A stretch of DNA of 64,000 nucleotides from Kofleriaceae bacterium (GTDB lineage: Bacteria > Myxococcota_A > Polyangia > Haliangiales > Haliangiaceae): the NCBI GenBank assembly GCA_965215005.1, contig CBDCCZ010000038.1, positions 32,001-96,000 of the forward strand, read 5' to 3'. Positions 55,087 through 64,000 of the stretch are shown one piece after another. The notes beneath the pieces are model-generated. The model was not told where the DNA came from, did no database searches, and was given only the letters and a program-made list of their open reading frames with translations. Positions within the stretch are counted from its first letter, which is position 1. Each line of letters starts with the position of its first letter. The translations under genes were made by a program, and so were the position numbers.

Positions 55087-56802
55087 ATGGTCTCGAACGC
55101 GGTGACATCGAAATCCATCTCGCTATTGGCCTTACTGACGTGTAGCGCTGCTGTGGCTTGTGGCAGCAAAGCCGCGCCCATTGTTGCGCCGGCAGAACCC
55201 CCTCCCGGAGTAGATTTGGTGTTCCTGGGAGGCGACATCTGGACAATGGATCCAGCGCAGCCGCGTGCCTCGGCGCTGGCGGTCCGCGCAGGGGAGATCG
55301 TCGCGGTGGGAAGCGACGCGGCGATCCGTCCGCTCATCGGCACCGACACGCGCGTTGTCGAGCTCCGCGGTGCGAGCGTCACGCCCGGCCTCGTCGACGG
55401 TCACGCGCATCTTTATGGTCTGGGCGCGGCGCTCGAGAGCGTGGACGTTCGGGGTGCTGCGAGTGCCGAAGCTGCCGCGACAACCGTTGCCACGGCGGCT
55501 GCAGAGATCGATCCCACCGGATGGATCGTTGGTCGTGGCTGGGATCAGAATCTCTGGCCAAATCAGGCGTTCCCCACGCATCAGGAGCTCGATGCGGCGC
55601 TGGGCGATCGGCCGGTCGTGCTCACGCGCATCGATGGCCACGCACTTTGGGCCAACTCCGCGGCGATGCGCGCGGCGGGCGTGGACCGCAGCACGGCGGT
55701 ACCAGCTGGCGGCAAGATGATCCTTGATGAAGCCGGCGAGCCAACGGGGGTGTTCATCGACGCAGCGATGGCGCTCATCGAAGCTCACGTGCCGCCGCCG
55801 TCGCGGCAGGTGCGCGAGCGGCGAATTCGTAGCGCGGCCAAGGTCGCCGTGGCGGCCGGGCTCACCGGTGTTCACGAGATGGGCATCGACGATGCGACCG
55901 CGGCTGTCTACGCACACTTGGCGGCGCACGATGCGTTGCCGCTGCGGGTTTACGCGTTCTTGGCCGGAGATGGCCAAAGCGCGGCCGAGCTGCGTCGCCG
56001 CAAGCCCCGAGCCGACAGCGGCGAGTCATTCTTCGCGCTGCGCGGCGTCAAGCTCTACGCCGACGGCGCGCTCGGCTCACGCGGCGCTCTTCTGCTGGAG
56101 CCATACAGCGACGATCCAGGCAATCACGGGCTCGCCGTCACTGCACCGAAAGCACTGGTCGAGGTGGTGGAGGCCGCCGCGGCAAGCGGCTGGCAAGTGG
56201 CTACGCATGCTATCGGTGATGCCGCCAATCGCGCGGTGCTCGATGCGTACGAAGCCGCGGCACGTGGTGCCCCTGAGGCAGATCGCCGCTTCCGCATCGA
56301 GCACGCGCAAGTGTTGCAACCCGATGATGTGCCGCGGGTGGCGGCGCTCGGCGTGCTGGCGGCGATGCAGCCAACCCATGCTACCAGCGATATGCCGTGG
56401 GCCGAGCAGCGTCTCGGTCCGCAGCGCATTCTTGGGGCGTACGCGTGGCGGACCCTGCTCGATGCGGGCGTACGTGTCGTGGCTGGCTCGGATTTTCCGG
56501 TCGAAGAGGTCTCGCCGCTGCTCGGCATCTATGCCGCTGTGACGCGGCAAGACGCCAGCGGCGCACCGGCGGGCGGCTGGTATCCAGCGCAGCGCATGAG
56601 CTTGGAGGAGGCTCTTGCCGCCTACACGGTAGCGCCGGCGTACGCGGCGTTCGTCGAGGATCGCCGCGGCCGGCTCGCTCCGGGTTACGTGGCCGACATA
56701 ACCGTGTACGATCGCCCTCTTGCAGCGGATCGGACGCTGCTATCGACGGCTATCGCGATGACGATCGTGGGAGGTCGGGTAGTCTTCGAGAACACCCCGT
56801 AG
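55087..56802 (+). CDS. Amidohydrolase family 3 (YtcJ-like), probable lipoprotein
   Basis: PGLVDGHAH, GRGWDQ, DGH, KLYADGALGSRGA, HAIGD, RIEHAQ, GSDFP. Confidence 0.92.
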   Translation: MVSNAVTSKSISLLALLTCSAAVACGSKAAPIVAPAEPPPGVDLVFLGGDIWTMDPAQPRASALAVRAGEIVAVGSDAAIRPLIGTDTRVVELRGASVTPGLVDGHAHLYGLGAALESVDVRGAASAEAAATTVATAAAEIDPTGWIVGRGWDQNLWPNQAFPTHQELDAALGDRPVVLTRIDGHALWANSAAMRAAGVDRSTAVPAGGKMILDEAGEPTGVFIDAAMALIEAHVPPPSRQVRERRIRSAAKVAVAAGLTGVHEMGIDDATAAVYAHLAAHDALPLRVYAFLAGDGQSAAELRRRKPRADSGESFFALRGVKLYADGALGSRGALLLEPYSDDPGNHGLAVTAPKALVEVVEAAAASGWQVATHAIGDAANRAVLDAYEAAARGAPEADRRFRIEHAQVLQPDDVPRVAALGVLAAMQPTHATSDMPWAEQRLGPQRILGAYAWRTLLDAGVRVVAGSDFPVEEVSPLLGIYAAVTRQDASGAPAGGWYPAQRMSLEEALAAYTVAPAYAAFVEDRRGRLAPGYVADITVYDRPLAADRTLLSTAIAMTIVGGRVVFENTP

Positions 56803-56816
56803 CTCCGCTAGACCTG

Positions 56817-58724
56817 ATGCGGTTTTGTCCCTTTTGCAGCGCCGAGAACGCCGACGAGGCTAGCCATTGCTCCTCGTGCGCCCGGCGTCTGCCGCCGCTG
56901 CCTCCGCGCCGAACCCCGGAGGCAACGGCTGGCGCGGCTCGAAGCGTTGCCGTGCCGCGGGCGTCACAGCCCGAGAGCGGGCCCAGTGATGGCCGGCCGC
57001 GGACGCTGCCGCCGTCGCCGTCACGTCGCGAGCGCGACCGCGCGATGGCGCCGGCCGGCCGCGATGGCGGCGGTGCGATGGTCGCGCCCAAACGGGTGGA
57101 GTTGCCGCTACGACCGGTGCGGCCGGTGACGCGCGAAGATGAGCCGTCGTGGCCTCTTGGCGACGGCGAGCCGCCGCGTCCATTGATGCCGCAAGAGTCG
57201 GCAGCGCCGATGCCGGCGCCGGCACCACTGGCCGCTTCGCCACTGGCCGCTTCGCCACTCGCCGATTCAATCGACGATTGGGACGATAGCGACGACGGTG
57301 CGACGACCGTGCAGGCGGCGCCGGCGATGCTCGAAGAGCTGTTGGCCGATGGCATCTCCGGGGCCGCGGTCGACGACGAAGAAACTCGCGTCGAGCACGT
57401 CGAGCGGCTCGAGGTCTTCGCCTCGGTCGAGCGGCCAGGTCCGCAGGTTGGCGCGGCGGCGCCCATCGATCGCAGCTGGGCGCGAAGTGAGACGCCCACG
57501 GTCCGCGAGCAGCTCTCGCTCAAAGCTGCTGCGCCTGCTGCTGCAAACGCTGCCGTGCCCGAGCCGCTGCCGCCCGCGCCGACTGGGCCGCGCAAGGCGA
57601 CGCCGCCGCCCACGCCGCCGCCGCGTCCCGAGCCGCCGCCCACCCGCATCGTGGCCGACATCCGCGAAGGCAGTGAGCCCTTCGAGCGACTCGAGGTCGC
57701 GCCGATTCCCGAAGTTCCCGAGCCGGGGTTCGGCAACGCCGTGGCGTACGCAATTCGCTTTACACGCGCGCGCTGGCAGCGGCGGGCCGCGATTGCCACG
57801 CTCGAAAAAGACATCACCACCGACACCGCTGCGCTCGATCAAGTGCTCGGCGCTCTCGGCAAAGAGGGACGGCGCGTTCGTACCGACAACCGCGCGTTGG
57901 TGGGCGAGCACCACGCGATTGACGAGGCCGAACGGCGCTGCGAGCGCATCGATCAAACCTGCGCCGAGCTCACCAGCCGACAAGCAGAAGAGAATACTCG
58001 CTTCGATGAGCTCGAAGCCGAACGCCTGGCCAAAGTCACCGAGGCCGAGGAGTCGCTGGAGAAAGCCGAGGCCGAGCTCGTGAGCTTAGAGGGCCAACGG
58101 CGCAGCCTGCGCGACAAGAAGAAGGCGATCGATCGCCGTCATAAAGCGCTGCTAAAGAGCGCCGATGACCGCGAAGATCAGGCCGGCAAAGCGGCTATGC
58201 CGGATGCGCGTGAGCAGCTGCGTCGGGCTGCGGAAGACTTGCGCGCTGATGCCGCTGCCATCGATCCGCAGCGGCTCGAGATCGATCGGCGGCTGCTAGC
58301 GCTCGATGCGCCCATGACCCGCGTTGCTGCGACTGTCGATACGCTCAAAGCCGAGCTCGAGTCGGCGCGGCGCAGTCTGCACGATGCACGCGAGGGGCAT
58401 CGGCACCGGTTGGCGGAGCTCGAAGCCGAGATGGGACGTCGCACTCGCGAGCTCGCGCAAGCGCAAGCCGAAATCGCGCGACGGCTGGTCACGCTCGGCA
58501 CGCTCATGAACCTACACCGCGTCGATGCGCCGGAGCTCGTGCAGCTATACGCGCGCATCGATCGCTTGCGCACCGCCATCGGAACGCGCACCCGCGAAAT
58601 CGATCGGCTCACGGCCGAGCGCGAGGCCTACGACCGCGGCTCGCTGGTCCGCGGTTATGCAGTGATGGGCGGATTGGCGATCGTGTTGTCGACGATCATC
58701 GTCATCATCCTGGCGCTCACGTAG
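56817..58724 (+). CDS. Zn-ribbon, Pro-rich, coiled-coil protein with C-terminal TM anchor
   Basis: MRFCPFC..CSSC; long coiled-coil region; hydrophobic tail. Confidence 0.75.
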   Translation: MRFCPFCSAENADEASHCSSCARRLPPLPPRRTPEATAGAARSVAVPRASQPESGPSDGRPRTLPPSPSRRERDRAMAPAGRDGGGAMVAPKRVELPLRPVRPVTREDEPSWPLGDGEPPRPLMPQESAAPMPAPAPLAASPLAASPLADSIDDWDDSDDGATTVQAAPAMLEELLADGISGAAVDDEETRVEHVERLEVFASVERPGPQVGAAAPIDRSWARSETPTVREQLSLKAAAPAAANAAVPEPLPPAPTGPRKATPPPTPPPRPEPPPTRIVADIREGSEPFERLEVAPIPEVPEPGFGNAVAYAIRFTRARWQRRAAIATLEKDITTDTAALDQVLGALGKEGRRVRTDNRALVGEHHAIDEAERRCERIDQTCAELTSRQAEENTRFDELEAERLAKVTEAEESLEKAEAELVSLEGQRRSLRDKKKAIDRRHKALLKSADDREDQAGKAAMPDAREQLRRAAEDLRADAAAIDPQRLEIDRRLLALDAPMTRVAATVDTLKAELESARRSLHDAREGHRHRLAELEAEMGRRTRELAQAQAEIARRLVTLGTLMNLHRVDAPELVQLYARIDRLRTAIGTRTREIDRLTAEREAYDRGSLVRGYAVMGGLAIVLSTIIVIILALT

Positions 58725-58804: not shown

Positions 58805-59920
58805 GTGCCGAAGGTCCTGGTCTCCAATAACAGCGAGCTTCTCCGGCATCTTGCCGCGGCGCCGTTTCGTCACTTGGCGCTCGAGCTGGTCACTGCATCC
58901 AGCGGCGATGAAGCCCTTTATTTGCGCAATCGTGAGGCGCCAGCGCTGGCGATCCTCGATGCTGAGCTTGCGGGCGTGTCTGGCTATCAGGTTGCGCAGC
59001 AGATCAAAGAAGAGTCTGACTGCCGCGTGGTGCTCGTGCTCGGCAAGCGCATCAACGCCGAACAGATGCGCCGCGTGAGCAAGTCGGGGTGCGATGAGGT
59101 CTTGATCGCGCCAATGAGCGCCGATGAGCTCTATGACGTCGTCGCGATTCAGCTCGGGCTGCCGCGGCGCGGAACCGAACGCTTTAGCGTCCAGCTGACT
59201 GTCCGAGAGGGCGATGATCGCCGGCCCGTCGATGGTCGAGTTACCAATCTCTCCGTGGATGGCGCGCGGCTGGTGGTGGCCGAGCCACTGGTCGAAGGCA
59301 CCCGCCTCGAGCTCATCATCTCCGAGGCCGACGCCAAACCGATCACGGTGGCCGCGCGGGTGGTTTGGGCGCAGCCCCACGAGCGCAAGACGGTCGTGGG
59401 CGCCGCCTTCGATGAGCTCGAGCCGCGGATGCAATCGGTGTTGGCGCGGCTCACGCAATGGGACTTGGTCAAAGAGACCGAGCGAACCCGAATCGTGCTC
59501 AAGGGCGACTTCACCGAAGCCACTGCCTTCGATGATCTGTTGCCGGTGCTGGTGGGGCGCATCGACTTCGATCTGTCGCAGGTGCGCTATCTCAATTCGC
59601 TGGGTGTACGGGCCTGGTGCGAGTTGATTCGCGCGGCGCCCATTCACGGCTACGAATTCCACGCGTGCTCGATTCCGTTCGTGTTGCAGGCTTCGCTGGT
59701 GCCCGATGTGCTGGGGCGCGGCTCGGTGACGTCGTTCTTTGCGCCGTACGCGTGCGAAGTGTGCGAGCACCAGGAAGAGCGGCTGCTGCAAGCAGCGACG
59801 ATCTTGGCTGCCGAAGACATGGAACCACCACCGGGCGTGTGTCCCGAATGTGGCGGCCAGACTTCGCTCGACGACATCCCTGAGCGCTACTTGGCGTTCC
59901 TCCGCCAAGACGACGAGTAA
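58805..59920 (+). CDS. Atypical receiver + PilZ + STAS-like + Zn-ribbon protein
   Basis: REC-like ILDAEL; RRGTER/NLSVDG PilZ; DLSQVRYLNSLG STAS-like; CEVC..CPEC. Confidence 0.8.
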   Translation: MPKVLVSNNSELLRHLAAAPFRHLALELVTASSGDEALYLRNREAPALAILDAELAGVSGYQVAQQIKEESDCRVVLVLGKRINAEQMRRVSKSGCDEVLIAPMSADELYDVVAIQLGLPRRGTERFSVQLTVREGDDRRPVDGRVTNLSVDGARLVVAEPLVEGTRLELIISEADAKPITVAARVVWAQPHERKTVVGAAFDELEPRMQSVLARLTQWDLVKETERTRIVLKGDFTEATAFDDLLPVLVGRIDFDLSQVRYLNSLGVRAWCELIRAAPIHGYEFHACSIPFVLQASLVPDVLGRGSVTSFFAPYACEVCEHQEERLLQAATILAAEDMEPPPGVCPECGGQTSLDDIPERYLAFLRQDDE

Positions 59921-59938: not shown

Positions 59939-60751
59939 CTACAGTATTCCGCGCCGCTCTTGATAGAGGCGCAGGATATCAGCCGCGGTTTCTTCGACGG
60001 CCTTGTTGGTGACATCGATGACCGGCCACCTGGGGTGTGCTCGAAAGATGCCGCGCGAGTAGTTGATCTCATTCTCGATGTGCGCACGAGCGCCATAGCT
60101 CGAGTCGCTCGGCATTCCCAAGTGCTTGAGACGTGCTTGGCGGATGCGCATCAGCGTATCGGCGCTGATGATAAGTCCATAGACCTTGTCATCCTCGACC
60201 TCGCCTAGCTCCTTGGGAGGCTCGATCCCGAGCACGAGCGGCACGTTGGCCACCTTGAGCCCGCGCTGCGCCAGGTAGGTGGACAGCGGTGTTTTCGAGG
60301 TCCGCGAGATGCCGACCAGCACCAGATCCGCTTTTGGCAAATTGCGCGGCTCGGCGCCATCGTCATTCTTGACTGCGAACTCGACCGCTTCCATGCGGCG
60401 GAAGTAATCATCGCTGAGGCGATGGAGCAGGCCAGGAACTCCCGATGGAGTTGCTTGCAAGAAACCGGCGAGCTTGCCAATCAGCGCGCCGATCAGGTCG
60501 ATCGCTTCGACGTTGTGGCGCTCGATCTGATCGAGTAGCAGCTCACGAGCATCCTGATTGACCATGGTGAAGACGACCAACGCGCGCAGCTCGGCGGCGC
60601 GTTCGATGATTCGCTCAACCTCCGCCTCGAGGCGCACGCGTGAATAGGTTCGGATGCTCACCGGCGTGTCGCTGAACTGCAACGTGGCGGCGCGAACCAT
60701 GCGTTCGGCGGTTTCACCGGTAGCGTCGCTGATGACTATCACCGTCTTCAT
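59939..60751 (-). CDS. Pyruvate,phosphate/water dikinase regulatory protein (DUF299 kinase/pyrophosphorylase)
   Basis: ISDATGETA, YFRRMEAVEFAVKNDDG, GISRTSKTPLS, ANVPL, AVEETA. Confidence 0.93.
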   Translation of the reverse strand: MKTVIVISDATGETAERMVRAATLQFSDTPVSIRTYSRVRLEAEVERIIERAAELRALVVFTMVNQDARELLLDQIERHNVEAIDLIGALIGKLAGFLQATPSGVPGLLHRLSDDYFRRMEAVEFAVKNDDGAEPRNLPKADLVLVGISRTSKTPLSTYLAQRGLKVANVPLVLGIEPPKELGEVEDDKVYGLIISADTLMRIRQARLKHLGMPSDSSYGARAHIENEINYSRGIFRAHPRWPVIDVTNKAVEETAADILRLYQERRGIL

Positions 60752-60764
60752 GACGCGCTCGAGT

Positions 60765-62075
60765 CTATCTCAGAACCGGCAGCCGCGCCTGCTTACGGCT
60801 CGCACCGCCGGCATCTGCAGGCTGCTCACGCTGCCAATCGATCACCCTTGGGCATTCGGGATCGGGGGCGTGCTCATCGCCGAGCACGTGCGCCGAGACC
60901 ACCTTGCAGCCGCCACGACAAAGATCGTGATAGGAGCAGCTTGCACAGGGCTCGGCTGCATCGTGCCAGCGGCGAAACGCGCCGAAGGCTTCTTGCCGCC
61001 CCCAATAGTCGCGCAGCCGATCGACCGTGGGCCGCTCACGCGGCGCATGCGCAAAGCTGCACGCCGTGACCAGCCCGGAGGCTTTGGCGCCGATCAAAAA
61101 GTCGCCGCCGGTGCAGCCATACACCGCCAACTTGGCGAGCAGGGCGCGGTCCGGCTGGTGGTGAGCGAGCATCGGCGTGTACGAACAATCGACGCGGGTT
61201 CGAATGCGATGATGGCGTGCCGCGGCCAGCACGGTGGGCAAAAACGCGCGATGTTGGGCATCGCTGCAGGTGTGCTCGACGAATGCTCGAGCGCCGCGTC
61301 CCGCCGGCTTGAAGCGCAGTAGCTCGATTTCGCTGAGGCGCTTCTTTCGCGCATAGGCAAACAGCGCATCGAGCTCGCCAAAGTTATGGCGGGTCACGAC
61401 CACGTTGATACCGATCTCGCGCTTGACTGCTCGCAATGCGGTGATCGCTTTATCGGCGCGATCGAACCCGTCAAAACCGCGAACCGCCGCGTAGGTTGGG
61501 CCGAGTCCGTCGAGCGAGACGTTGATCTGTCCGAACAGCTCGGCGATGGGAAGCAATCGCTGCAGGCCGCTCAACCCGCTGGTCGTGAGGTTGGGAACCA
61601 GCCCGCGACTGCGCGCGTGCGCGGCTACTTCACCGAGCCACGGCAGGTCGGCGCTTTCACCGCCACCGAGCGCGAGATGAAAGACTCCCATCGCTGCCAG
61701 CTCATCGATCGCACGCTTCCAATCGCTAGCGCCCCACTCGTTTTTGCTGCCGCCTGGCGTCGCTCCGGTGTAGCAGCCTTGGCAGCCGGCATCGCAGCGA
61801 TTGGTGAGCTGAAGGTGCGCTTCGAGCGGTGCCGCCAACACCGCGCGCCCCACCGCGCCGTCATCAGCGGGATCGTTCCACAGCGAATCGCCCGGGCTAG
61901 GCCGTAATCCGAGCGAGCGCGCGTACGTGCGATCGACGAACACCAAGGCACGCGGCCATGCCAGCTGAACGATGGCGCCAAACGGCTCGATCCGCGCTCG
62001 TCGCGCGCCGTCGCCGGCAAGCCGCCGCGCTTGATCAATCCAGCGCGTGGCGCGACGTTTGATCCGCTCGAGCAT
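60765..62075 (-). CDS. Radical SAM/SPASM domain protein
   Basis: CDAGCQGC (CX3CX2C), GGGE, TTSG, VSLDG; SPASM C-TGG...CSF...CASC.....CRGGC...DPEC. Confidence 0.92.
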   Translation of the reverse strand: MLERIKRRATRWIDQARRLAGDGARRARIEPFGAIVQLAWPRALVFVDRTYARSLGLRPSPGDSLWNDPADDGAVGRAVLAAPLEAHLQLTNRCDAGCQGCYTGATPGGSKNEWGASDWKRAIDELAAMGVFHLALGGGESADLPWLGEVAAHARSRGLVPNLTTSGLSGLQRLLPIAELFGQINVSLDGLGPTYAAVRGFDGFDRADKAITALRAVKREIGINVVVTRHNFGELDALFAYARKKRLSEIELLRFKPAGRGARAFVEHTCSDAQHRAFLPTVLAAARHHRIRTRVDCSYTPMLAHHQPDRALLAKLAVYGCTGGDFLIGAKASGLVTACSFAHAPRERPTVDRLRDYWGRQEAFGAFRRWHDAAEPCASCSYHDLCRGGCKVVSAHVLGDEHAPDPECPRVIDWQREQPADAGGASRKQARLPVLR

Positions 62076-62256
62076 CGATGGAGGCCTCGAGAGCAGGCTT
62101 TCGCCAGCGCACCAGCGCCGCGATGATCGGCGTTGCCATCGACAGCGTCGCTGCGCCAAAGAGGAGAAACGTGACGTCCACGCCCAGACTCGATGAGTTG
62201 GGGTTTAGCCCCCACTTCACCGCGAGAATGCGACCGCGTGGTTTGCGTCCAAACAT
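62035..62256 (-). CDS. 73-aa peptide with NPNSSS motif and one TM helix; candidate radical SAM substrate
   Basis: Starts 4 bp after the upstream stop and overlaps the rSAM start; fills the operon gap. Confidence 0.65.
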   Translation of the reverse strand: MFGRKPRGRILAVKWGLNPNSSSLGVDVTFLLFGAATLSMATPIIAALVRWRKPALEASIDARADQTSRHALD

Positions 62257-62260
62257 GAGT

Positions 62261-63427
62261 TCAAGCGGGTCCGAAGCGAACGGTATCGAGAACTAGATCC
62301 ACTAGCTGCGCGCGATACAGCGCAATATAGCAGAGGGCGAGCACCGCGACGAACGCCGTGACGATGTGTGCCAGCGACCGCGCTCGCCGCGGCGGTTTCC
62401 CGGCGGCCAACGCTGCGCCGCTGAGCCAGGTGATCGCCAGCCCGCCGACCGCGATGGTGGCAACGGCGGGTCCGGCGGCGAAGTAGTCACTGTACGCCGC
62501 GAACATGAGTAGCGCGAGCCCTGGCGCGAGATAGACGACCTCGATGGGAGGGACTACCAGCGCTCGCAACGACTGTTGCAGCGTGCGCGTGGTTGCGGCC
62601 AGCGAAGCCAGAAAACCAGCCGCGGTGAGAATGAGAAGCGCGAGCGCTGCTACGTACAGCCGATGACGCCGGCGCTCGCTTTGAGCGTGACTGAGCGCAT
62701 CGTGCTGAGTTTGGCGTCGCGACGGCTCCGTGCCCACCGGCAAGGCTCGATATTCGGCTATTGCAGTGTCGAAGTCGCCAAGCGCCAACGCTGCGTCGGC
62801 GCCACCTAGCTGCGCTTCGTAGCGCTCTTTGGAATCGGGCCAGCGCCGCACCACCTCGCGGAACCAACGCCGCGCCAGCGCCGGCTGCGAACGGCGCGTG
62901 TGAAGGTTGGCCAACCACAGCGCCACCGCCGGTAATCCCGACCAGGTGCTGTACTCGGCGATCAGCGCTTCGGCCATACGCTGCGACTGCACCTCGCTGC
63001 GCTCGCCATAGCCCATGCGCAGCTCGTTCCAGCGAGCGATCGCGGCGGTGTCCTCGCCAAGCGGACCGAGCTGCGCGCGCAGCGCCTCGGCTCTCTGCTG
63101 GGCTGCCAAGGCCACTCGACTGCGAGGAAAACGCGCGAGCAGCTGCTCATAGAGCGCCAGCCCCTGCGTTGGCTCACCGAGCCGCTCGACACGCAACTCT
63201 GCGGCGCTAAACAGCGCATCTGCCGCCAGCGCCGGCTGCGCGAGCGCATCCTGAGCGACCGCTTCGTATGCCTCGGTTGCCTCGCGCCAGCGAGCTGCCG
63301 CCATTGCCTCGGCTGCGGCGGCGAACCGTTCTTGCACCTGGGCCTTGCTGCTTGGCACGTCGGCGCGCGCGGATGGCTGCAGCGCCATTAGCGCCATCAG
63401 CACCATCATCGCTGCGATCGCTTGCAT
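62261..63427 (-). CDS. TPR-like exported domain with C-terminal multi-TM region
   Basis: Signal peptide, BamD/YbgF-like repeats (LLARFPRS, VVRRWPDS), four C-terminal hydrophobic helices. Confidence 0.75.
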   Translation of the reverse strand: MQAIAAMMVLMALMALQPSARADVPSSKAQVQERFAAAAEAMAAARWREATEAYEAVAQDALAQPALAADALFSAAELRVERLGEPTQGLALYEQLLARFPRSRVALAAQQRAEALRAQLGPLGEDTAAIARWNELRMGYGERSEVQSQRMAEALIAEYSTWSGLPAVALWLANLHTRRSQPALARRWFREVVRRWPDSKERYEAQLGGADAALALGDFDTAIAEYRALPVGTEPSRRQTQHDALSHAQSERRRHRLYVAALALLILTAAGFLASLAATTRTLQQSLRALVVPPIEVVYLAPGLALLMFAAYSDYFAAGPAVATIAVGGLAITWLSGAALAAGKPPRRARSLAHIVTAFVAVLALCYIALYRAQLVDLVLDTVRFGPA

Positions 63428-63435
63428 GGCGCTCG

Positions 63436-64000
<565 letters not shown>

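Follow-up and report, generated by a model that had tools for sequence, protein, structure and literature searches.

A small tagged membrane peptide as the predicted substrate of a radical SAM/SPASM enzyme in a Kofleriaceae bacterium, with likely relatives in phages

In the genome of a Kofleriaceae bacterium (GenBank assembly GCA_965215005.1, contig CBDCCZ010000038.1), a gene for a radical SAM/SPASM enzyme overlaps an open reading frame for a peptide of only 73 amino acids, which raises the question of what so small a gene does beside such an enzyme. An earlier note on this DNA had proposed that the enzyme modifies the N-terminal segment of the peptide, which was thought to be anchored in the membrane. 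The window, i.e., the whole stretch of DNA analysed, comprises 64,000 nucleotides, and the following features are given in its numbering:

62261-63427, minus strand: TPR membrane gene, from reading of the ORF; recurring third gene of the system
62035..62256, minus strand: ORF of the 73-aa tag peptide, with basic N-terminus, beta-strand, N-S-S tag loop, hydrophobic helix, basic cluster, and variable tail
62215..62232, minus strand: peptide residues 9-14 (RILAVK), a strand predicted by modelling to run antiparallel to strand 3 of the half-RRE of the enzyme
62182..62211, minus strand: tag loop G16-G25, from alignments of Ser-type and Cys-type peptides
62194-62196, minus strand: codon of Ser21, the proposed site of chemistry
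62113..62181, minus strand: hydrophobic helix V26-L48, a probable membrane anchor that partly contacts the enzyme in the model
60765..62075 (ATG at 62075), minus strand: radical SAM/SPASM enzyme of 436 aa, in no curated family
61914..61997, minus strand: half-RRE (enzyme residues 27-54), from the AlphaFold2 model and a fold search
61773..61796, minus strand: CX3CX2C motif (C94, C98, C101) of the SAM-binding cluster, from sequence and alignment
60852..61187, minus strand: linker Cys297 and SPASM domain, from TIGR04085 and alignment of cysteines

The layout described in the earlier note was recovered on these three minus-strand ORFs: their order, a gap of 4 bp between the TPR gene and the 73-aa ORF, an overlap of 41 bp between the latter and the enzyme frame, and one hydrophobic, putatively transmembrane helix (hydropathy up to 1.99 in a 19-residue window) with a basic stretch, RWRK, behind it. 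Inspection by eye led to the rejection of Tat, pilin, and lipoprotein signals for the peptide. The TPR protein displays four C-terminal hydrophobic helices and, judged by eye, a probable signal peptide.

The 73-aa ORF is a true gene and not a chance reading frame, because 1026 of 1030 candidates were homologs at E<=0.1 (341 representatives at 50% identity and E<=0.001) and because silent differences in its core exceed replacements. Comparison of 44 core codons at 80 genome loci with those of the window revealed 1502 identical, 1220 silent, and 798 residue-changing codons; the loci had been chosen by motif, which makes motif invariance within this set circular. Searches of Pfam, NCBIfam, PHROGs, and PADLOC revealed no family for the peptide, the TPR protein was also without a PADLOC match, and the ESM Atlas returned only unnamed clusters for the peptide (0.78-0.79, low recognition). 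In the literature searched, mostly outside subscription journals, we found no published description of the tag or of the peptide-enzyme pair; supplementary tables of radical SAM genome-mining studies could list the family.

Alignment of 56 diverse peptides of the type present in the window (Ser-type) showed that G16, N18, P19, N20, S21, S22, and S23 are invariant. Common to these and to a second type carrying Cys in the tag (Cys-type) are G16, N20, S/C21, S22, and G25, with position 21 exclusively Ser or Cys; across both types, S23 can be Ala, and N18 and P19 are variable. No constraint is apparent on the first seven residues or on the tail beyond residue 54. Of the segment WGLNPNSSS singled out before, the conserved part is thus the core G-x-x-x-N-[S/C]-S, while W, L, the first N, and P vary. 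As had been stated, the peptide resembles neither MftA nor PqqA, lacking the MftA core, ExxxY, and any Tyr; it is also without the sulfatase motif, C/S-x-P-x-R. Among longer proteins, 11 carried the tag, most of which look like frameshifted or merged calls. One of them, P0395, has a full PqqD-type RRE domain (PF05402) fused ahead of a Ser-type tag peptide and is possibly a merged call too, since it is a single sequence on a 1.2-kb contig.

We identified 2210 homologs of the enzyme at E<=1e-20 (8000 scored). Database homologs with a name belong to Haliangiales/Kofleriaceae for the most part, and Haliangium ochraceum carries the genes for both peptide and enzyme. Among 251 genomes of the same phylum, in which the enzyme was called at E<=1e-60, it was present in 51, and a tag peptide was found in all 51, so that the small ORF is indeed conserved with the enzyme; since the genomes are related, these counts overstate independence, and no p-value is attached to the pairing. 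Using the peptide of the window as the query revealed 22 of these peptides, and the remaining 29 genomes yielded two more Ser-type and 25 Cys-type peptides beside the enzyme and, in the last two (G059 and G230), a Cys-type peptide away from it. The 200 enzyme-less genomes gave weak peptide matches in only two cases, one a degenerate remnant and one false. At the former locus (L386:3-545), helix and basic cluster are kept, the tag is altered, and no enzyme was found, which is consistent with a possible decayed remnant. Five genomes carried two peptides, three of them also two enzymes, and the two genes lie apart in 11 or more genomes. Starting from the peptide, the enzyme was found at 63 of 80 genome loci (the best 80 of 327) and at 51 of 80 metagenome loci (the best 80 of 573), including 34 of the 37 with at least 1.5 kb downstream of the peptide. 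One metagenome contig (L139) harbored two Ser-type tag peptides within 3.5 kb of a single enzyme. Profile A8 was built from 20 loci that it later counted, so those matches arise by construction; independent of it are the reading around the enzyme, the new finds in G059 and G230, and the near-absence of the peptide from the 200 enzyme-less genomes. Altogether, the genomic data show that peptide and enzyme form an obligate pair that is often fused.

The enzyme matched the radical SAM family PF04055 (39.6 bits, cut-off 29.5) and passed the SPASM model TIGR04085 (31.6 bits, cut-off 27). Its CX3CX2C motif (C94-C98-C101) has Gly ahead of the last Cys and, as pointed out before, no aromatic residue there, which is of little weight since annotated MftC has His at this position. 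The tail is Cys-rich as claimed, C297, C321, C339, C377, C380, C386, C390, and C408 being invariant in 39 of 39 aligned homologs; by analogy with SuiB, these eight would suffice for two fully ligated auxiliary clusters, and C297 resembles the linker Cys before the SPASM hairpin that the available text on SuiB describes (PMC6231123). No NCBIfam equivalog cut-off was reached, the top named scores being those for MftC, GeoRSP, and PqqE, and the enzyme stayed below the families of MftC (TIGR03962, 112.5 of 265 bits), PqqE (TIGR02109, 86.9 of 381 bits), and the small-molecule enzymes AhbC, AhbD, and NirJ (70-81 bits versus 500-650); AhbD-like rows also branch away from the tag-linked enzymes on the tree. 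Though MftC and PqqE are the closest named families, identity is about 30%, they form separate well-supported clades, their systems (MftABC, PqqADE) use a separate full RRE protein, and their peptide cores (G-V-Y in MftA, ExxxY) differ from the tag. Judged by the tests described here, the enzyme works like an RRE-dependent SPASM peptide maturase and belongs to none of the mycofactocin, PQQ, Ahb/NirJ, anSME, and Avap groups.

In the AlphaFold2 model (pLDDT 91.6), the enzyme begins with strands 27-30, 33-38, and 43-48 and a short helix 49-54, followed by the barrel. Fold searches placed it closest to the cross-linking maturases SuiB (Z 30.2, rmsd 3.6, 371 aligned, from model residue 19), SkfB (Z 27.4, rmsd 3.1, 303 aligned, from residue 24), and CteB, with anSME at Z 23.8. 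The N-terminal region superposes on the N-terminal RRE domains of SuiB and SkfB, so that the RRE suggested earlier stands in its first half only: a canonical RRE, as described in the available part of PMC6231123, has three strands and three helices and binds the leader by extension of its sheet, while here two helices are absent, and we therefore speak of a half-RRE. At the sequence level, a search of the N-terminal profile against solved structures revealed no RRE but one unrelated match (E 0.016). The suggested likeness to MftB holds for the common word RxEPFG and is otherwise weak (a single one of 12 N-termini matched TIGR03967, at E=0.078, and the alignments with three MftB proteins, at E 0.14-2.1, covered at most about 30 residues). 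With SuiB/SuiA, SkfB, and CteB, the enzyme shares domain order and fold and, in the model, a sheet that a leader strand extends. Differences are an identity of 17-18%, the two missing RRE helices, a peptide with a probable hydrophobic anchor that is often fused to the enzyme and has neither a Trp/Lys nor a Cys-rich core, and recurring neighbours that include no protease or exporter.

Modelling of the complex, proposed before as a check, resulted in a score of 0.87 for peptide and enzyme (0.91, 0.84, 0.87) versus 0.00 for the best of three controls. Of 157 solved complexes, 116 come up to this mark, as do 2 of 215 mismatched pairs; since SuiB-SuiA and CteB-CteA are already solved, the score may reflect likeness and is no proof of binding. 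At least 79% of contacts agreed between runs, with a partner pLDDT of at least 56. In the predicted complex, peptide residues 9-14 pair with enzyme strand 43-48 (expected error 0.3-0.7 A), the peptide interface spans residues 6-32, and the helix partly touches the enzyme. The modelled contacts on the enzyme side (Y102, the GGGE loop, E251/R254/K256, D296-S298, and C339-F341) line the barrel interior; as the tag loop lies between the paired strand and the helix, we read it as the part that would sit inside the barrel.

Cys-type tags, with N-C-S in place of N-S-S, occur in 27 of the 51 genomes. The argument of the earlier note that a peptide with no Cys cannot be sacti- or ranthipeptide-like fails at this point for the family: the peptide of the window has no donor Cys, but position 21 is Cys in those 27. 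In one of them (L227), Asn20 is Ser. On the tree, the Cys-type arises once within the Ser-type (support 89). Seventeen of the 27 tags are in frame with the enzyme, in the order tag, hydrophobic helix, hairpin, and barrel, and fused rows fall in three places, indicating at least three separate origins. Among enzymes of the Cys clade, 9 of 10 unfused but 7 of 17 fused ones retain RxE-x-F/W-G, the motif of the hairpin, a loss that is expected mostly in fusions if the hairpin recruits the peptide, and a model of a fusion protein independently shapes the same peptide segment as a strand. Because the enzyme follows the helix in fusions, tag and enzyme would lie on opposite sides of the membrane if the helix crosses it; therefore, either the chemistry precedes insertion or the helix does not cross.

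Regarding the neighbourhood, 41 of the 80 close loci, i.e., the top-ranking ones among 327 genome loci, have a TPR protein with C-terminal membrane helices, and divergent TPR groups accompany the peptide in 33 and 11 distant loci, even with the enzyme elsewhere. Beyond the close relatives, the recurring neighbours are genes of the purple-acid-phosphatase type (37 loci) and genes for HupE/UreJ (17 loci), TlpA (10), and a TonB receptor (9), which weakly points to the envelope and to metals; none of these lies in the window's own neighbourhood, and at the 80 close loci, phosphatase, HupE, and TonB genes do not rank as common neighbours either. Neither a protease nor an exporter was detected among the recurring neighbours, in line with what had been seen in the window, and the same holds for peptidase, oxidoreductase, and dehydrogenase genes and, among neighbours scanned with Pfam, for sulfatases. 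Two co-oriented genes flank the system in the window, one downstream for a PPDK/PEPS regulatory kinase (59939-60751) and one upstream for a sigma-54 response regulator (63436-64000), which might drive the operon. Since hardly any but close relatives retain them (38 of 44 loci for the kinase, 32 of 38 for the regulator), we regard them as synteny and not as parts of the system. A receiver-PilZ-zinc-ribbon protein (58805-59920) and a zinc-ribbon, proline-rich, coiled-coil membrane protein (56397-58724) recur in some close loci. In 11 loci from several families, the enzyme is followed by an unannotated membrane protein of about 150 aa without a Pfam match (e.g., L244:3438-3887).

Viral sequences were scanned with two spellings of the tag as patterns; the resulting sets of loci hold near-duplicates. 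In the first scan, the bacterial profile recognised an enzyme at 21 of 33 loci (16 fused, 4 adjacent, and 1 nearby), while the other 12, without enzyme, look like chance matches. The second scan revealed the enzyme at 19 of 24 loci, at many of which two to six tagged ORFs form an array, and tags or matches with no enzyme within 5 kb at the other five. For the Ser-type peptide itself, none of 83 pattern matches in viral contigs was confirmed. In a blind test on six of 33 records of isolated phages, picked by similarity of the enzyme, an ORF with an N-terminal N-S-S-S was found within 2 kb of the enzyme or fused to it in all six inspected. Examples from phages are Arash gp146c, RM378 p106/p108, Ma-LMM01 gp128/gp130, phiYS40 gp161/gp162, Lak-A1, and Vibrio phage D479. 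In Lak-A1 (L295:6849-9301), five tandem ORFs follow the enzyme with the N-terminal tag as their sole common part; the spacing from Gly to Asn is one residue longer there than in the window. In most ORFs of the phage arrays, the tag begins 2-8 residues from the first Met, and the tagged bodies of about 40-250 residues revealed no Pfam family over cut-off and, in the ESM Atlas, no named family for the body domain.

Profile-profile comparison linked the phage enzymes to the bacterial one (99.6%, E 5.5e-25), and the phage profile identified the window enzyme in the source genome at 86 bits, with the next protein at 20. They share the tag register, the hairpin, GVFxxAxGGGE, KxxGRG, and Asp(-Cys) after strand 6 with the bacterial enzyme. 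In contrast to it, their tagged proteins have soluble, unrelated bodies, often several per enzyme, and the enzymes themselves have Twitch-like or Cys-less tails, one group keeping Asp-x-Cys and a Twitch-like tail and another being without SPASM cysteines. Four phage enzymes (L296, L300, L312, and L320) displayed a stretched or altered cluster motif with about seven or more residues between the first two Cys, the first Cys being displaced in L300 and L320. In a quick LG+G4 tree search, affected by long branches and compositional warnings and leaving out L320 because no CxxC was found in it, all tag-linked enzymes fell on one side of a branch (SH-aLRT 88), with support of 96 for the bacterial and 97 for the phage rows, and MftC and PqqE apart (support 100). 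Since the AU test did not reject a clade of bacterial enzymes plus MftC (p-AU 0.503), a common origin rests on tag, hairpin, and motifs more than on the tree; we consider it likely, though not proven.

A possible distant analogue is found in anti-phage defence, where, according to the available text of PMC11564622, Avap1 (radical SAM) and Avap2 (DUF6375) assist KpAvs2, and Avap2 binds KpAvs2 and is needed for defence. Like the pair of the window, Avap1/Avap2 combine a radical SAM enzyme bearing the same short hairpin with an adjoining small gene of similar N-terminal register. DUF6375 differs in reading E-H-S against N-S/C-S and in being soluble, its enzyme has a Cys-less tail, and the available text reports no chemistry (PMC11564622); provided that E-H-S is aligned correctly, no residue but S22 is universal. 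Genome G132 holds an Avap-like pair that displays the hairpin, the Cys-less tail, and E-H-S in the register of the tag; it scored 83-102 bits on the bacterial profiles and grouped with the tag-linked enzymes (support 88) on a long branch that leaves its placement unsure. At its locus (L299:2-4145), genes for an Avap1-like enzyme, DUF6375, and a large NTPase stand in a row as in the KpAvs2 operon, and the same genome also harbors a Cys-type fusion. A search for PF19902, the partner expected beside an Avs2 gene, found nothing in the source genome, and the peptide has no Pfam match.

The first proposal, modification of the peptide at its N-terminal segment by the adjoining enzyme, is supported, as it withstood the refuting conditions that the earlier note had set on co-occurrence, RRE fold, and family. 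We explain the locus in four steps. Peptide and enzyme form the obligate, often fused pair seen in the genomes. Peptide residues 9-14 would dock, according to the model, as a fourth strand on the half-RRE, and the loop behind them would enter the barrel by the SAM site. There, a 5'-deoxyadenosyl radical would abstract a hydrogen from the triad Asn20-Ser/Cys21-Ser22, with the beta-carbon at position 21 as the most likely site. Oxidation of the resulting radical by the two auxiliary clusters would yield formylglycine whether that residue is Ser or Cys, the reaction that anSME carries out on sulfatases. The modified peptide would then stay in the inner membrane with the TPR protein, where a role in the envelope, probably in maturing or loading a periplasmic metalloprotein, is conceivable. 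Docking and chemistry on the triad are very probable in our opinion. The whole explanation, with the small gene encoding the enzyme's substrate, we hold probable by a narrow measure. Formylglycine at residue 21 is put forward tentatively as the likeliest product, closely rivalled by cross-linking and leader cleavage, and the envelope role together with the TPR protein is rather doubtful.

We chose formylglycine because it is a known outcome identical for Ser and Cys: anSME, in the available account, turns either residue into formylglycine via the beta-hydrogen (PMC8326336). The enzyme resembles anSME in a SPASM domain with, putatively, two fully ligated clusters, and the Ser or Cys that anSME accepts recalls position 21, an exchange that is suggestive only. 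anSME differs in having no RRE-like hairpin, and the neighbours scanned include no sulfatase. Against the proposal, the peptide is without the sulfatase motif, Asn20 is Ser in L227, and one group of phage enzymes paired with the tag is without SPASM cysteines, which the oxidation might need.

Instead of an aldehyde, the enzyme could form a small ring by linking the side-chain O or S at position 21 to a carbon in either Asn20 or Ser22, i.e., an ether in the Ser-type and a thioether in the Cys-type, like TqqB/NxxcB. The kinship in fold to SuiB, SkfB, and CteB and the eight Cys, which suit oxidation, agree with such a cross-link, and the invariant Asn beside Ser/Cys recalls the Cys-Asn thioether and Thr-Gln ether mentioned in the available text of PMC8326336. 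However, ethers and thioethers alike would have to be products of one enzyme family, neither protease nor exporter recurs beside it, and Cys-less phage enzymes fit it poorly, so that we judge a ring unlikely.

To the same degree, we doubt that the enzyme is a radical leader peptidase that cuts or primes the backbone at Asn-Ser/Cys and removes the basic leader, the new N-terminus (e.g., keto-acyl) activating or releasing what follows. Phage tags near the first Met on unrelated bodies, with five tagged ORFs per enzyme in Lak-A1, would make sense for such a cut; its redox-neutral reaction would explain enzymes without auxiliary clusters, and the membrane peptide, once freed of its basic leader, would no longer pose a topology problem. 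But the bacterial enzyme appears to keep two full auxiliary clusters, no SPASM enzyme in the literature consulted sets a direct precedent for scission at N-S/C, and the common origin with the phage enzymes is not proven.

The peptide might also be a subunit that completes the half-RRE and anchors the enzyme or plugs its active site, the enzyme acting on a small molecule or on the TPR protein. In the model, the peptide helix touches the enzyme and could replace the two missing RRE helices, while equal copy numbers (1:1) and fusion on several occasions would suit a partner in fixed stoichiometry, as does Avap2 in its binding to KpAvs2 (available text of PMC11564622). We nevertheless find this improbable, as a substrate would better account for a position restricted to Ser or Cys in the contact zone of the active site and for phage arrays in which many tagged proteins go with one enzyme, and the two genes lie apart in 11 or more genomes. 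Excision of the tag core and its maturation into a diffusible cofactor, as for mycofactocin or PQQ, is the least credible reading and quite improbable, because the highest NCBIfam scores, the MftC sister group left standing by the AU test, and the RxEPFG word of MftB are outweighed by scores far under the cut-offs, a peptide without MftA or PqqA core, and neighbours among which no peptidase, oxidoreductase, or dehydrogenase recurs.

Substrate modification, the reading we prefer, can be extended to the phages. The system looks less like a secreted RiPP and more like a portable N-terminal modification tag of 12-15 residues (strand, Gly, Asn-Ser/Cys-Ser) that would steer one radical SAM lineage to any bearer: the membrane peptide, the enzyme's own N-terminus, arrays of phage proteins, and, in altered form, an accessory protein of anti-phage defence. 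The chemistry would be new for such a tag (an aldehyde or a radical cut of the backbone), and the half of the RRE that the enzyme lacks may come from the peptide itself; we give this extension a fair hearing but somewhat less than an even chance.

The tag-enzyme pair represents an undescribed substrate class of radical SAM enzymes, with a minimal two-gene unit and natural single-chain fusions. Unlike its phage counterparts, the bacterial form comes with a complete SPASM domain and an envelope context, and its natural exchange of Ser for Cys indicates which residue reacts. Were the enzyme to leave an aldehyde or to cut cleanly, the system would provide a short, genetically encoded tag for protein labelling. 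Knowledge of the chemistry may clarify what Avap1/Avap2 contribute to defence by Avs2, and it would assign a function to bacterial and phage genes that number in the thousands and have no annotation.
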